From the NCBI GenBank assembly GCA_043816965.1, contig JBDRHK010000081.1:1-16945 (forward strand): a DNA stretch of 16,945 nucleotides, given 5' to 3'. The DNA comes from Candidatus Iainarchaeum sp. GTDB taxonomy: Archaea; Iainarchaeota; Iainarchaeia; Iainarchaeales; JAFCCJ01. Shown here piece by piece: positions 6,509 to 16,379 of the stretch. Made by a program: the position numbers and the translations under genes. Under the pieces are notes generated by a model. That model was not told the origin of the DNA. It saw only the letters and a list, made by a program, of their open reading frames with translations, and did no database searches. How positions within the stretch are numbered: position 1 is the first letter of the stretch; every line of letters starts with the position of its first letter.

Positions 6509-7143
6509 ATGACACAGCCAATTTCATCCTCTATTTCTTCCTCGGTTGAGAAGCCCCTTGTTTTCCCATTAACGACAATTGAGGGGATGCTTGTTACCTT
6601 ATGTTTATCCATCATCAAATCGATTAAATCAATTTCCAAATCACCGGGAAAGGCGAAAATTCTGGTATTTGGACACTTATCCCTCACTTTATCAAGAATT
6701 GTTCCCTGAAGAAGGCATTGGTTGCACAATACCTGGTCCTTATAGAAGAAAAGTATTGCATTAATCTTCTTTTCCTTGCATTGCTTTTCAAAATCCTGCA
6801 TGTAAAGATATAATTCAAGGTTTGCATAGAAATATTTCCTTTTCAGGAGGTCGTAAGAGGTGAGAAAGCTTGCCTTCTCCCCTGCTTCAAGTTCTTTAAC
6901 CAAATTATAGGCTTTTGCGGCCTGGCTCTCAATCCGCATCTCAAGCAAATCGCAGTAATTGCCCTCATCGCCCTCGACTTGGTTGTAGAGGAGGAAAAGC
7001 CTTGTTGAATCCATATCCAGGATTATTTCATCAACCTTATCGTCCAGGGAATTGAGCCTCATATTATCCAACTGCATTATGAGAAAGATTCCAAGGATTA
7101 CTATAAACAGGGTCAGAATAAGGGCCTTGATGTATTTGCTCAT
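6505..7143 (-). CDS. Membrane-anchored protein with C-terminal thioredoxin-like domain
   Basis: N-terminal TM helix, LFFY...CNQC motif and a cis-Pro-like IPSIVVNG; ATG at 7143 overlaps the GT2 stop (TAATG). Confidence 0.75.
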   Translation of the reverse strand: MSKYIKALILTLFIVILGIFLIMQLDNMRLNSLDDKVDEIILDMDSTRLFLLYNQVEGDEGNYCDLLEMRIESQAAKAYNLVKELEAGEKASFLTSYDLLKRKYFYANLELYLYMQDFEKQCKEKKINAILFFYKDQVLCNQCLLQGTILDKVRDKCPNTRIFAFPGDLEIDLIDLMMDKHKVTSIPSIVVNGKTRGFSTEEEIEDEIGCVI

Positions 7144-8429
7144 TACCAAGTGTACTCACTTTTGTTAACTTCTTTAAGAAAACTTAGGAAATAAATTCCT
7201 GCAACAAAGAGGCTATAAATGGTGATGAAAATCAGTGTATAGAAAATCTTTGGGATGGTTAGCTTTTCCTTAATGAAGAAATGGGAAATAATAATTGTAA
7301 AGAGGAAAAGCCCTGTCGTCAGGAGCTGGAAAAGCAATGCTGAGTTTGTTACCATTGTTAACTGGATTAAATTCCAAACATTGGTGTCATATGTCTGCCA
7401 CACTATTAAGTAATTTATGTAATTGATTACTGACTCCAGATTGACCAAAATCAGGGAAAGGATAAGAATCATTGCAATCCCTTCCACAATAAGTGAGAAT
7501 GGGAGGCAGAACATTCCAAATTGGCCGTGGCTGGGATTGAAAATCATGTCCCTGTATTTGAAGCTGTTTACGAACTTTCCCCTGTACCACCTTGTCCTCT
7601 GCCTTATTAACTGGCCTAATGTTTCAGGAACCTCTGTGGGAATTGTGGCCTCAGGGCAGTTCTTAATCCTGTAGCCATGGTTCTGAAGCCTAAATGCAAT
7701 TTCCATATCCTCTGTCAGGTTGGTTTCATCATAGCCTCCCAAATCAATCAGCAATTTTCTCCTGTAAATGCTCATAGGGCCGGGAGTAACAAAAACCCCG
7801 TTGAGATAAGATAGGACCTTTTGAAGCAATCCAAATGCGACCGTATATTCAATGGCCTGTATGTTCTGCAGGATGTTTTTGGGGTTATGCACTTTTATAA
7901 AGCCTGTGACAGCCCCTGTCTTCTCATCGGCGAACATCGCAACCATCTTTTCCAGAACATCCTTTTCGGGGAATGTATCTGCATCAATGCAAGCGACCAA
8001 TTCCCCCTTAACCATCCTGATTCCTTCATTTAGTGCCCTTGCCTTGCCCTCGTTCTTTTTCTTTGCAAGGACTTTTATTCCCTTAATGCCTTTCAGGATT
8101 TTCTGCGAGCCATCCGTACTTCCATCATCAACAACCAAAATTTCAAATGGTTTTGGGTAATGCATTGCCTTAACTGCCTTAATGCAGCCCAAAAGGGTGG
8201 TGGAGGAATTGTAGTTGGGAATTACGATGGATATTGAGGGGTAATTTAAATTCACTTTTTCCTTTTTTTGCCTCATCTCAAGGAAGGTGATAAGGTAAAC
8301 GCTAATCACAAAAATCAGCACAATATTGAGCAAAACCAGGAATAGGTTAATGGTCAGCAGCTGGCTGATTAAGTAAAGGCCGATGAATACCGAAACCATC
8401 AGCAAAGGGACCCTGTAGGTTATTTCCAT
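7143..8429 (-). CDS. Processive GT2 glycosyltransferase (cellulose synthase/IcaA-like)
   Basis: VVDDGSTD, GKARALN, DAD, TED and QRTRW (QxxRW) motifs with flanking TM helices. Confidence 0.92.
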   Translation of the reverse strand: MEITYRVPLLMVSVFIGLYLISQLLTINLFLVLLNIVLIFVISVYLITFLEMRQKKEKVNLNYPSISIVIPNYNSSTTLLGCIKAVKAMHYPKPFEILVVDDGSTDGSQKILKGIKGIKVLAKKKNEGKARALNEGIRMVKGELVACIDADTFPEKDVLEKMVAMFADEKTGAVTGFIKVHNPKNILQNIQAIEYTVAFGLLQKVLSYLNGVFVTPGPMSIYRRKLLIDLGGYDETNLTEDMEIAFRLQNHGYRIKNCPEATIPTEVPETLGQLIRQRTRWYRGKFVNSFKYRDMIFNPSHGQFGMFCLPFSLIVEGIAMILILSLILVNLESVINYINYLIVWQTYDTNVWNLIQLTMVTNSALLFQLLTTGLFLFTIIISHFFIKEKLTIPKIFYTLIFITIYSLFVAGIYFLSFLKEVNKSEYTW

Positions 8430-8466
8430 TTAATAATTAGCCCTTTAATATCTTATTAATGCTTTC

Positions 8467-8486
8467 CATTTGCAGAACTGCAAATG
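8467..8486. promoter_or_regulatory. Perfect 9-bp inverted repeat between divergent promoters (candidate operator)
   Basis: CATTTGCAG-AA-CTGCAAATG lies between TATA-like boxes for GT2 (-) and tRNA-Thr (+). Confidence 0.35.
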
Positions 8487-8537
8487 CCTTATAAAACTAA
8501 CTTAGGAATCATTTAATTGGCATAAGGTCGGATTTTG

Positions 8538-8611
8538 GCCCTGGTAGCAAAGCGGCCTACTGCACCACATTGGTAATGTGGAGATCGTGAGTTCAAATCT
8601 CACCCAGGGCT
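8538..8611 (+). tRNA. tRNA-Thr(GGT)
   Basis: Acceptor GCCCTGG/CCAGGGC, U73, anticodon arm CCACA-TT-GGT-AA-TGTGG, T arm GTGAG-TTCAAAT-CTCAC. Confidence 0.96.
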
Positions 8612-9234
8612 TTTTCAATCCTGTTTAAGTGCCTTTCATTCGAAAAGCCAATCAGATTCATCCACTTTTCGAACTGTTCATGGCCATAAATCTCCAAGTA
8701 ATAGGCGTTCCTACCAGGATAGTTTCTGTTTGAAACAACGAAATATTTGCCCAGTATTTTAACTAATTGGTTGATTAGAGGAACACTTACTATTTGAAGT
8801 GTGATTCTGGGATACGGTTTCGAGTAAGCTCTTCTCCTGTCAAAAAATATGCAGCCATCAGTGTCAAATATTCCTCTAATCGTTGAGAAAATTAAAGATT
8901 CATCTGAATTCATTATTTCACCGGGAATTTTTATATTTTCAGTTTTTCTCTTTTTAGGGAATTCAAAACGGTTTGTTAACATATCATATAAATTTTTTGA
9001 GTAAAATCGCATATCATTAGCATTTTTATTTTTCTTTTTAATGAGAGATCCGTCTAATCCAAACAAGGATTTTGCGTTTCGGTTAAGATATTTAAAATAA
9101 GATTTATCAAGTTCGTTATGCCCGCAAATGCCTACGATAACTCCTCTGTTTGTGTACCCATCTCCAATTAAGGCGCCAATAAACTCGCAAAGATCATTAG
9201 ACAGTTCTTGATTTTCATTAATTTCCTTCCGCAT
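8593..9234 (-). CDS. Free-standing double-motif LAGLIDADG homing-endonuclease-like protein
   Basis: Motifs FIGALIGDG and TIRGIFDTDG; the last codons and stop lie antisense within the tRNA-Thr 3' end. Confidence 0.9.
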   Translation of the reverse strand: MRKEINENQELSNDLCEFIGALIGDGYTNRGVIVGICGHNELDKSYFKYLNRNAKSLFGLDGSLIKKKNKNANDMRFYSKNLYDMLTNRFEFPKKRKTENIKIPGEIMNSDESLIFSTIRGIFDTDGCIFFDRRRAYSKPYPRITLQIVSVPLINQLVKILGKYFVVSNRNYPGRNAYYLEIYGHEQFEKWMNLIGFSNERHLNRIEKALGEI

Positions 9235-9309
9235 CTTAAAATAAGATTTTTAAGAAATAAAAATGATTTCGGGAGTGCGTTTCCGGTGCGGGAAATGAAA
9301 AATAGCGGC

Positions 9310-9345
9310 AGGTCGGGGTCGCGAGTTCAATTCTCGCCAGAGGCT
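9310..9345 (+). pseudogene. Orphan 3' half of a tRNA (Thr-like, positions ~38-73)
   Basis: A-GGTCG-GGGTC-GCGAG-TTCAATT-CTCGC-CAGAGGC-T followed by a T run; intact T arm; no matching 5' half upstream. Confidence 0.8.
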
Positions 9346-9413: not shown

Positions 9414-10088
9414 ATGGGTATTGAGGATTCACATATTGAGGATTTTGTTGCGAAGTACATTAAGGGAGATTTTGTTGTTGCTGTCGGGACAAGTTTGTTG
9501 GGGAAGGCATTCCTGAACAAACTTGCCTTTGCCGAGGCAGAGAGAGGGGTGAATATCTCAATTATCCCCACCTCGCTGGAAACCGCGGCGATTGCTTCAC
9601 AACTGAAACTAAAGATTGTTTCACTCAATGAGGTGGAGATTGATGTTGCGATTGAATTTGTTGATGCCGTAGATGACAATTACAATTTCATAAAGAGGAA
9701 TTCCTCCTCGCTTGTTAGGGATAAGATGATTGCCCAGAGCGCCGCAACACTTATTGTTGTCACAAAGCACGAGAATTATGTTAAAAAATTGGCCGGGAAA
9801 ATCCCTTTTGAGATTGCCACTTTTGGCTACAAGCGGACACTTAACCAGCTTAACCTTTTGGGCAAGGCAAGGTTAAGGGAAATTAATGGAAAGCCCTACA
9901 AAACCGAAACAAACCACTATCTTGCAGATGTTGATGTTGATGAGATTTACTCTCCTGAAGATTTGGAATATCAGTCAAAGGAAATTCCCGGGGTACTTGA
10001 AACAGGGCTGTTTTTGGGTTATGCTGACAAGATAATCCTGTATGACAAGAATATTGAGGTTAAAAGCAGGACAGAATTTAAGCAGTAA
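9414..10088 (+). CDS. rpiA: Ribose-5-phosphate isomerase A-like protein with degenerate active-site motifs
   Basis: Overall RpiA layout (IPTS..T, RDKMIA, IPFEI, TETNHYLAD, IPGVLETGLF), but the GTGST, DGADE and KGGGG motifs are altered. Confidence 0.8.
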   Translation: MGIEDSHIEDFVAKYIKGDFVVAVGTSLLGKAFLNKLAFAEAERGVNISIIPTSLETAAIASQLKLKIVSLNEVEIDVAIEFVDAVDDNYNFIKRNSSSLVRDKMIAQSAATLIVVTKHENYVKKLAGKIPFEIATFGYKRTLNQLNLLGKARLREINGKPYKTETNHYLADVDVDEIYSPEDLEYQSKEIPGVLETGLFLGYADKIILYDKNIEVKSRTEFKQ

Positions 10089-14994: not shown

Positions 14995-15008
14995 TTTATC
15001 GGCATTAT

Positions 15009-15083
15009 GCCCCGATAGTCTAGCCCGGTCAAGGACACAGCCCTCTCAAGGCTGAAACCCGGGTTCAAATCCCGGTCGGGGCA
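15009..15083 (+). tRNA. tRNA-Glu(CTC)
   Basis: Acceptor GCCCCGA/TCGGGGC, anticodon arm CAGCC-CT-CTC-AA-GGCTG, T arm CCGGG-TTCAAAT-CCCGG. Confidence 0.96.
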
Positions 15084-15143
15084 TAGGAGAAAAGTTCAGT
15101 GCCCTGACTAGCCTTTATATTGTTCAAAGGCAGGGATTAAAAT

Positions 15144-16379
15144 ATGGCTGAACTAGTCTCCATCCATCAGAAATATGAAGACGTTAATGCGGAATTTAAC
15201 AGGATTGGGAAGACTCTTTCTTCCCATAATTCCGCCCTTCTTCACAACTTTTATGAAAAGCATTACCTGAAGGAAGGGCTGAGCAAATCCCGGGCGATTA
15301 AATCCCTTATTACCCTCCGAAAATTTGCCGAATTCACGGGCAAGCCGTTGGACAAAATAACTGAAAAGCAGATTGAGGCATACAACATTAAGCTGGTTAA
15401 GGATGACAAGAGCCTGTTTACGATAAGCGATTACAAGAAAATAATCAAATGCTGGCTGCGCTTTTTGGGGGCGAAGAAAAACTGGAACCTTATAAATTCA
15501 AGGGAATTGAAGTGCAAGAATCCCTATGGAAATGGGCACGCATTACTGCCTTCTGACCTTCCTTCTGATGAAGAGGTTTTGCAGATATTCAGCCTTGCGA
15601 GCTCCCGGTTGCGCTGTGTTCTGTCCTTATGTGAGGGAGCGGGATTCCGGATTAGCGAGGCAGCCACAATGAGAATAAAAGACCTGAAATGGAATGAAGA
15701 TGGCTCTGTCCATGCAACCGCCCGGCAGAGCAAGAGCCAGCAAAAGACTGTTTTAGTGCGGCCCGATTTGGCTTATTATATCAAGGCATGGCTTAATACC
15801 TTGCCAGAAAATAATGAGGATTTCCTCCTTTTTGCCGACCCAAAGAAGCCTAACCAACCCATTCAGTATGCCACCATAAACAAAGAACTGAAGAAGATTG
15901 GCGAACAGTTGGGCTTGAGGAAAAAAAGAAAAATGGGTTTTCATGCCTTTCGGCACAGGCACGCCACTTGGGCATTGGGGCATATGAACCCAATAATGGC
16001 TAAACTTCGAATTTGGAATAATAAAACGACAAGGATGGATGGGGTTTATGGGGCCTTCTCCAACGAGCAGGTTGATGAGGAATTTCGTAAGGCTAATGGG
16101 GATGTTGTTGTCGATAAACCGAGGGACGTGATGAAGGAAAATAACCAGATTTGTTTTAAATGCAAGGTCGCATATCCCGGCCATGTAAAAGTATGCCCAA
16201 TTTGTTCTCGGTCATTGGATGTGGAGAAAATGATTAATGAGAAGGAAGAAGCAGAACGAGTGCAGGTTGACCAACTAGTCAGGATAATTGACGCTTTGCT
16301 GGACGAGCGATTAGGGAAGGACAACGGAAAACTGAAGACAATTCCAATTTTAGCCAGCCTGAAAAAACAAGGTTTATAA
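15144..16379 (+). CDS. Tyrosine recombinase/integrase with C-terminal zinc ribbon
   Basis: GFRISEA (R), QSKS (K), FHAFRH (HxxR), RIWNN (W at the H/W position), GVYG (Y); CFKC...CPIC. Confidence 0.92.
   Translation: MAELVSIHQKYEDVNAEFNRIGKTLSSHNSALLHNFYEKHYLKEGLSKSRAIKSLITLRKFAEFTGKPLDKITEKQIEAYNIKLVKDDKSLFTISDYKKIIKCWLRFLGAKKNWNLINSRELKCKNPYGNGHALLPSDLPSDEEVLQIFSLASSRLRCVLSLCEGAGFRISEAATMRIKDLKWNEDGSVHATARQSKSQQKTVLVRPDLAYYIKAWLNTLPENNEDFLLFADPKKPNQPIQYATINKELKKIGEQLGLRKKRKMGFHAFRHRHATWALGHMNPIMAKLRIWNNKTTRMDGVYGAFSNEQVDEEFRKANGDVVVDKPRDVMKENNQICFKCKVAYPGHVKVCPICSRSLDVEKMINEKEEAERVQVDQLVRIIDALLDERLGKDNGKLKTIPILASLKKQGL

Follow-up and report, generated by a model that had tools for sequence, protein, structure and literature searches.

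The systems closest by mechanism to the locus described here appear to be the mobile open reading frames (mORFs) of fungal mitochondria, followed by intronless homing as carried out by SegB-like phage enzymes. In the sections of the fungal report that deal with them (PMC3630166), mORFs are described as LAGLIDADG or GIY-YIG open reading frames (ORFs) that arrive together with a foreign copy of part of their target gene, which takes over the function. The native gene end persists downstream in an unexpressed state, and this remnant groups with close relatives while the inserted copy groups with distant ones; replacement gene ends of this kind are listed there for atp6 of Allomyces and for atp6, atp9, cox2 and nad3 of Glomus (PMC3630166). 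Intronless homing is described for SegB of T4/T6 and for the free-standing Seg/Mob endonucleases in a second account (PMC13096335, citing Brok-Volchanskaya 2008), whose relevant passages present SegB as a phage-borne GIY-YIG enzyme of loose specificity with 83 mapped sites and present the association of Seg-type endonucleases with transfer RNA (tRNA) genes as widespread (PMC13096335). A third case, the disruption of tRNA-Thr(GGU) by a mobile element in Caldiarchaeum subterraneum (Sugahara et al. 2012, PMC3293823), is put forward in the portion of that paper concerned with it as a route to disrupted archaeal tRNA genes. The subject of the present analysis is a stretch of 16,945 nucleotides (nt) from Candidatus Iainarchaeum sp. 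(contig JBDRHK010000081.1 of assembly GCA_043816965.1), hereafter the window, in which the interval between a family-2 glycosyltransferase (GT2) gene and the ribose-5-phosphate isomerase A gene (rpiA) holds a tRNA-Thr(GGT), an antisense ORF of 213 amino acids and the 3' half of a tRNA. The window constitutes contig C81 of a metagenome-assembled genome of 1.34 Mb (109 contigs, 86% complete, 42% G+C). We consider it likely that a cassette consisting of a tRNA and a LAGLIDADG homing endonuclease replaced the 5' part of the resident tRNA-Thr(GGT) at this locus and left the resident 3' half behind as a scar.

A resident tRNA-Thr(GGT) replaced by a tRNA and endonuclease unit

Analysis of the interval confirmed the components named in a preliminary description of this DNA. 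The intact tRNA-Thr(GGT), here termed tRNA*, was called both by ARAGORN (8537-8612) and by Rfam RF00005 (8538-8611, 63.4 bits), and it is the sole tRNA-Thr(GGT) detected in the 86%-complete assembly. A tRNA-Thr profile run against the whole genome matched the tRNA 3' half (the orphan) at an E value of 2.8e-5, and the orphan is unique in the genome when up to three mismatches are allowed. The compensatory difference between the two T stems (GTGAG/CTCAC in tRNA*, GCGAG/CTCGC in the orphan) and the mismatched acceptor strands (CCAGGGC in tRNA*, CAGAGGC in the orphan) were likewise seen, in line with the earlier view that the orphan is no attachment-site duplication of its neighbour.

Comparison with a relative of the same genus (G001) identified the state of this locus before the replacement. 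G001 shares the neighbourhood of GT2, rpiA and tRNA-Met, and its GT2-rpiA interval contains one whole tRNA-Thr(GGT), GCCTCTG...CAGAGGCT, with neither the endonuclease nor a copy of tRNA*. An endonuclease-free GT2-rpiA allele with a gene of just this form had been predicted from the window; the prediction was borne out in G001 except for the anticodon stem, which was expected to read CGACC/GGTCG and reads CGTCA/TGACG. The expected stem is found in G035, and a one-base variant of it in G024 and G016. The G001 tRNA equals the orphan over 35/35 bases, from tRNA position 42 to three bases beyond the gene end, and the orphan is 97%, 95% and 92% identical to the corresponding genes of G024, G035 and G016. 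This old type is common in the order, as these three genomes share the T arm and acceptor of G001; the only departures are compensated pairs, one in the T stem of G016 and one in the acceptor of G035. Because the G001 gene pairs with itself and equals the common type, it represents the ancestral state and not a recombinant of the two copies in the window.

The alignment of the two genomes also delimits the exchanged segment. The GT2-to-tRNA interval is syntenic, and the sequences are near-identical up to ...GGAATCATTTAATTGGC and divergent afterwards; flank homology ends at approximately 8521-8531 and returns inside the orphan. In the window lineage about 64 bases, comprising the leader and positions 1-37, have been replaced by about 0.78 kb. 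The 46 bases upstream of rpiA are 98% identical to G001, and the intergenic flanks are about 74-81% identical. Since the dead orphan is unchanged over 35 bases while the flanks have diverged to this extent, we infer that the replacement is recent relative to the split of the window and G001 species. The locus therefore presents a presence/absence polymorphism, occupied in the window genome (G000) and empty in G001, in which the old tRNA of the occupied allele is truncated at position 37/38. An endonuclease-free relative carrying the same tRNA together with the orphan, named beforehand as a result that would speak against replacement, is not what G001 shows. The surrounding region is conserved across the order (tRNA-His/histidyl-tRNA synthetase ... 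tRNA-Thr ... rpiA), so that the flank homology between species could come from there. Between its old tRNA-Thr and rpiA, G001 has a small ORF (L003, 1745-2260) with a lipoprotein-like start that appears leucine-rich-repeat-like when read by eye; this ORF is absent in the window.

The affinities of tRNA* lie elsewhere. It departs from the old type in both halves (D arm, anticodon stem, T stem, acceptor), and these pair only with each other. Its best match within the order is a tRNA of G136, a genome of another family, at 93% over all 75 bases, compared with 76% over 51 bases for the G001 tRNA at the same locus. The similarity to G136 (L045, G136:C104, 436-546) continues beyond the tRNA into 36 further bases, which share 72% identity with the 3' end of the window's endonuclease gene. 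Translated in frame, they give FSNKMHLDRIKEALGEI and a stop codon, against IGFSNERHLNRIEKALGEI and a stop codon in the window, that is, a remnant of 12-17 codons of the endonuclease tail with a tRNA-Met gene directly after it. We read this stretch, from its sequence, as a probable relic of the same cassette following loss of the endonuclease. The resident tRNA of the window lineage has been replaced by a tRNA and endonuclease unit of foreign affinity, and the before and after pair with G001 supports the earlier suggestion that the old 3' half was left as a scar.

One further part of the preliminary description, the bracketing of the unit by the 7-bp direct repeat AGGTCGG (second copy at 9310-9316), did not survive. 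A shared word of at least seven letters occurred in 170/2000 shuffles of 45-nt junction windows, and a matching flanking repeat was absent at five other orphan-bearing loci. The repeat is ruled out as a junction signature, being at chance level and not recurrent; the left copy is probably due to chance and possibly native upstream sequence.

Table 1 Features of the tRNA-Thr locus and its flanks (window coordinates)
Feature	Position	Strand	Remarks
GT2 gene	7143..8429	-	left native flank; Pfam Glycos_transf_2, E 6e-37
Native upstream region of the tRNA locus	8440..8521	+	TATA-like box (catttaattgg); from alignment with G001; putative promoter of the locus
AGGTCGG, left copy	8525..8531	+	loose alignment to AATGCCGG of G001
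Complete tRNA-Thr(GGT), tRNA*	8538..8612	+	acceptor GCCCTGG/CCAGGGC, discriminator T, intron-free
Free-standing two-motif LAGLIDADG endonuclease gene, 213 amino acids, short form	8593..9234	-	intact ORF
Promoter-like region of the endonuclease gene	9240..9295	-	TATA-like box, then module TTTCCCGCACCGGAAACGCACTCCCGAAAT (9266-9295)
Orphan, 3' half of the old tRNA-Thr(GGT) (tRNA positions 37/38-73)	9310..9345	+	nhmmer model positions 37-72
rpiA	9414..10088	+	right native flank; Pfam Rib_5-P_isom_A, E 7e-38

Toward the end of the window (15008-16379), a phage-integrase family ORF at 15144-16379 (Pfam E 5e-17) stands directly behind tRNA-Glu(CTC), and a second tRNA-Glu(CTC) was found on contig C73. 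The ORF and its tRNA-Glu(CTC) may represent a separate integrated element that runs past the window end.

The endonuclease and its family in DPANN archaea

The antisense ORF matches Pfam LAGLIDADG_3 (E 3.7e-8) and contains the two motifs already recognized in it, LCEFIGALIGDG (D25) and IRGIFDTDGC (D124/D126). Within an alignment of 26 homologues, G24, D25 and G26 are invariant, and D124 and D126 are conserved in at least 90% of the sequences. An AlphaFold model built with this alignment reached a predicted local distance difference test (pLDDT) score of 95.3 and a predicted template modelling score of 0.92; a prediction from the single sequence (pLDDT 37.9) was discarded. The model gave 144 matches in the PDB at E <= 0.001, headed by I-Tsp061I, VMA inteins, PI-PfuI and I-DmoI, with the archaeal intron endonuclease I-Tsp061I as the best solved match (template modelling scores 0.72/0.75) and the LAGLIDADG-derived factor WhiA and the bI3 maturase among the lower-ranked ones. 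By sequence, the enzyme is closest among solved proteins to the endonuclease domain of the TliVMA intein (E 1e-9). As modelled, the protein has the pseudo-symmetric alpha-beta-beta-alpha-beta-beta-alpha double domain of a single-chain, two-motif LAGLIDADG enzyme. With an intact ORF, conserved acidic residues in both motifs, a confident model and true homing endonucleases as best solved matches, the enzyme looks active. It has no GIY-YIG or HNH catalytic domain, and may work like the Seg enzymes without membership in the Seg/Mob families.

The gene stands outside any intron or intein, has a TATA-like box and an upstream module of its own, and lies tail-to-tail with tRNA*, such that its final six codons and stop codon overlap the 3' end of the tRNA by 20 bases (8593-8612). 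An ORF inside a bulge-helix-bulge intron, as for I-DmoI, was considered and rejected, as tRNA* is complete and intron-free and the ORF is on the other strand. Most homologues are longer and possess a conserved N-terminal domain (alignment A3, columns 1-170) of the form R..FF....W..L......R..FQ.Y..G...P...F...NWG..KGG, which matches no Pfam family; besides the window gene, a few other homologues also are without it.

A search at E <= 1e-5 found a homologue of the enzyme in 138/196 genomes of the order. The closest homologues belong to Candidatus Iainarchaeum and more distant ones to Woese-, Pace-, Nano- and Micrarchaeota, which places the family in a DPANN setting. The best homologue, an intact gene at 58% identity, is from the same other family as G136, and the best homologue in G001 is 38% identical and sits at another locus. 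Decayed copies are represented by a stop codon in L037 and by the C-terminal relic in G136. As judged from these sequences, the distribution appears patchy and non-vertical.

The genomic surroundings of the homologues were surveyed in two samples. The first comprised the 29 best loci of the order outside the window, and at 24 of these the ORF converges on a tRNA-Thr (19 GGT, 5 TGT) located at its tail. The ORF extends 1-88 bases into the tRNA 3' end at 23/24 convergent loci, the exception being L037 with its broken ORF. Four further loci are codirectional, in the order tRNA-Thr(CGT), endonuclease and 3' fragment, the fragment being present in all four, and the last lies at a contig edge. The second sample comprised 80 loci from species-representative genomes across DPANN archaea. 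A tRNA-Thr gene or fragment is located beside the endonuclease in 79/80 loci, and the remaining locus is cut by a contig end. A whole tRNA-Thr is convergent with the gene in 25 loci, directly after it on the same strand in 19, and just upstream in 23, of which 16 also have a 3' fragment after the gene; only pieces are present in 10, some of them intron-split genes, and other upstream pieces in 2. The association of a tRNA with a tRNA half, which the preliminary description had proposed to look for among homologues, thus recurs. Linkage of the family to tRNA-Thr is near-absolute, and it is accompanied by recurrent scars, conserved catalytic residues and decayed copies.

In four convergent loci the orphan 3' piece lies on the strand of the linked tRNA and begins at position 37 (the window), 41 (L038), 49 (L017) or 51 (L027). 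The orphan starts 76 nt upstream of the endonuclease start in the window and 51-59 nt upstream in L038, L017 and L027; in L016 and L032 the 3' piece is farther off. Four orphans are weaker matches (E 0.002-0.06) in which the T arm and an acceptor ending in GGCT are still visible. Most orphans are of the ...C[AG]GAGGCT type, and the linked tRNAs have varied acceptors. A sister clade of 35-43% identity (L039, L040, L042, L043 and 23 of the loci L113-L150) is found between a whole tRNA-Thr(CGT) and a tRNA-Thr 3' fragment, all codirectional. The fragments of this clade start at model positions 21-43, and the layout is that of a replacement copy, an endonuclease and a native remnant. In the order sample, 9/20 GGT partner tRNAs have an intron at position 37/38.

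The upstream module of the window endonuclease belongs to a larger set. A BLAST search with 9236-9312 for a complementary leader partner returned instead a repeated promoter-like module of the form GCACCGGAAAC-N-CACTCCCGAAA(T), followed by a TATA-like box. At four mismatches or fewer it has 21 copies in its own genome, located 26-47 nt before start codons on contigs including C5, C15, C22, C25, C26, C31, C66 and C86; at two or fewer there are 13 copies here, 5 in G001, 2 in G027, 1 in G014 and none in the other 192 genomes of the order. At least 12 ORFs behind the module have LAGLIDADG motifs (six confirmed by tblastn, the rest by eye), and others resemble PIN, HicB-like, AbrB-like and NurA-like genes by eye. 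The module is much better conserved than the genes behind it. It is a putative promoter or factor site and may mark a regulon of selfish nucleases. Paralogous LAGLIDADG genes, approximately 27-35% identical to that of the window, were observed at C86:8063-8963, C22:1126-2112, C25:6757-7785 and C26:23468-24286, where they abut or overlap tRNA-Ile(GAT), tRNA-Gly(CCC), an intron-bearing tRNA-Val(GAC) and tRNA-Leu(GAG). Each paralogue seems to have a tRNA partner of its own.

Proposed mechanism and alternative explanations

Under the reading that we prefer, a cassette made up of a complete tRNA-Thr(GGT) joined tail-to-tail to a free-standing LAGLIDADG gene would have entered the tRNA-Thr(GGT) locus and displaced the resident tRNA up to position ~37 along with its short leader. 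The incoming tRNA would now be driven by the resident promoter region, and the resident 3' half (38-73) would remain behind the endonuclease gene as a dead scar. The endonuclease is expected to cut endonuclease-free tRNA-Thr genes at a target that includes sequence 5' of the orphan, presumably the anticodon arm, because orphans would otherwise stay cleavable. Repair of the break would take the donor allele as template, and co-conversion would bring in, along with the endonuclease gene, a tRNA that is spared by the enzyme, so that the cell at no point goes without this essential tRNA. The endonuclease gene may decay later, with only the imported tRNA remaining. The cleavage site, the resistance of tRNA* and actual homing are inferred here from sequence comparison.

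Several observations weigh against this reading. The window enzyme is without the N-terminal domain of about 125 amino acids, which is full or nearly so in 19/26 aligned homologues, and it may be weakened. The promoter module in front of its gene is confined to the host genus (4/196 order genomes), which indicates that the 5' side of the cassette was rebuilt locally and is not a simple foreign import. That the tRNA* type travels only with the endonuclease is ruled out, as the endonuclease gene is present at only 1-2/29 loci with the tRNAs most like tRNA*; tRNAs of this type thus occur as ordinary genes too, or have outlasted a lost endonuclease. Orphan start points range over model positions 21 to 51 and mark no single fixed cut site; they fit variable end points of conversion or recombination better than one insertion point. 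The anticodon arms of the endonuclease-linked tRNAs of L016 and L023 equal that of the old type of G001, which sits uneasily with a target limited to the anticodon arm. Finally, a same-species endonuclease-free allele was not seen in the short contigs of the sequencing runs, a result that says nothing about its absence.

Some of these observations would fit an alternative in which the cassette is a passive passenger that arrived through normal gene transfer, with recombination that was illegitimate or used flank homology, and the endonuclease is inactive, domesticated (for instance as a DNA-binding regulator or maturase-like protein) or directed at a site other than the tRNA-Thr gene. The short form of the enzyme, the host-genus-specific promoter module common to many other genes, the variable orphan starts and the presence of WhiA and the bI3 maturase among the lower-ranked structural matches are all compatible with such a history. 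We nevertheless regard it as unlikely. Both motifs have conserved acidic residues in the 26-sequence alignment, and the family adjoins one target gene family in 79/80 loci and in three different orientations, which fits target-site specificity better than chance linkage. The degraded copies, namely the stop codon in L037 and the relic in G136, are in addition what a homing cycle predicts.

A common target of integrases in archaea and bacteria is the 3' half of a tRNA gene, beginning at the anticodon loop. The orphan might accordingly be the attachment-site remnant of a tyrosine-integrase element that duplicated the 3' part of its target tRNA, and both the phage-integrase family gene in the same window and the recombinase element proposed at tRNA-Thr(GGU) in the pertinent part of the Caldiarchaeum study (PMC3293823) lend this some appeal. 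This gene, the only one of the integrase family, is however 5.8 kb off beside a different tRNA, and rpiA lies between, placed as in G001. The insert of about 0.8 kb encodes a tRNA and an endonuclease only, with no integrase. The orphan and the adjacent complete tRNA differ in T stem and acceptor, and without the orphan's sequence in that tRNA there is no duplication of the attachment-site type. An origin of this kind is very improbable.

The orphan could also be viewed as the 3' half of a split, trans-spliced tRNA with its 5' half elsewhere, since this archaeon has many intron-bearing tRNAs, the break falls at the canonical 37/38 position and a partner might fall outside an assembly that is just 86% complete. 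Strict and degenerate pattern searches and a tRNA-Thr profile search nevertheless recovered no matching 5' half, and none with a complementary flank, in this 86%-complete assembly. In front of the orphan lies A+T-rich, promoter-like sequence that belongs to the other strand, rather than a G+C-rich leader capable of pairing; the genome already has a complete tRNA-Thr(GGT), and G001 shows the piece to be the tail of a once-whole gene at the same spot. The split-gene interpretation was rejected and retains, in our view, only a slight chance of being correct.

Least credible of all is an assembly or binning artefact joining two organisms at ~8530 or at ~9300 (the latter raised in the preliminary description), for although the source is a metagenome-assembled genome of 109 contigs and tRNA repeats often break or mis-join assemblies, both junctions are crossed cleanly with 0 differences by contigs of different studies (323 nt from X1, possibly the source sample, covering 8251-8573; 231 nt from X2, another study, covering 9115-9345), both flanks are syntenic with G001 and the same architecture recurs in independent genomes. 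The four runs yielded short contigs only, none of them across the whole cassette, and two joints listed from the run contigs stem from relatives.

Significance and comparison with known systems

The locus offers a clean natural comparison of a cellular chromosome before and after an essential RNA gene was replaced in association with an endonuclease, and empty, occupied and decayed alleles are all available. How archaeal tRNA genes came to be disrupted, into halves or by 37/38 introns, is a long-standing question, and this endonuclease family constitutes a concrete and testable agent at that very position. The enzymes would add to the meganucleases new members that naturally target conserved tRNA genes, and the genus-wide promoter module before many nuclease genes hints at coordinated control of selfish nucleases. 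A search of the literature found nothing on LAGLIDADG genes bound to archaeal tRNA genes; most subscription journals lay outside that search, and the result is hence not proof.

A far broader interpretation, which we hold to be doubtful, is that tRNA-locked LAGLIDADG endonucleases are a principal driver of the turnover of tRNA genes among DPANN archaea. Whole tRNAs would be swapped by them between lineages; they would also shed halves that could seed split or permuted genes, and favour 37/38 introns as a form of immunity; in this genus, the host or the elements would control a dozen nuclease genes together with toxin-antitoxin-type genes via the shared promoter module. The frequency of introns counts against the immunity part of this interpretation. 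Intron-size tRNAs stand beside the endonuclease in 22/68 cases of the wider sample, as compared with a rough base rate, without a proper control, of ~9/28 ARAGORN-called tRNAs of this genome, and intron enrichment as a sign of immunity was set aside for want of any difference.

With respect to the systems introduced at the outset, the window shares with the fungal mORFs, as outlined in the cited sections (PMC3630166), an endonuclease ORF, a foreign functional copy (tRNA*, 93% identical to G136) and a native remnant on the far side (the orphan, of the G001 type). It differs from them in having an RNA gene of an archaeal chromosome as its target, in the import of a whole tRNA of foreign type and not a gene end only, and in an endonuclease that is antisense and overlaps the tRNA tail. 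Similarity to SegB, to the extent that it is covered in the account consulted (PMC13096335), consists in a free-standing gene located by tRNA genes; SegB cuts within tRNA genes and spreads by co-conversion of its own gene and flanking DNA. The present enzymes, in contrast, are LAGLIDADG proteins of cellular archaeal genomes that are tied to one isoacceptor family, overlap their tRNA and are accompanied by tRNA scars.

The model for Caldiarchaeum, in the part of the paper that sets it out (PMC3293823), likewise rests on comparison of populations or relatives at tRNA-Thr(GGU) and likewise has a fragment split from a different whole copy by an inserted element. There the element is 1.8 kb, encodes a DNA recombinase and is associated with a 5' fragment, whereas here it is 0.8 kb, encodes a LAGLIDADG enzyme and is associated with a 3' fragment. 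I-Tsp061I, I-DmoI and the VMA inteins have the same fold and the same single-chain, two-motif build, but the window gene is free-standing and antisense to its partner gene, with no intron or intein. A free-standing homing endonuclease that is accompanied by gene replacement is a known kind of system, and what is new here is that the gene replaced is a whole tRNA gene and that its setting is an archaeal chromosome.

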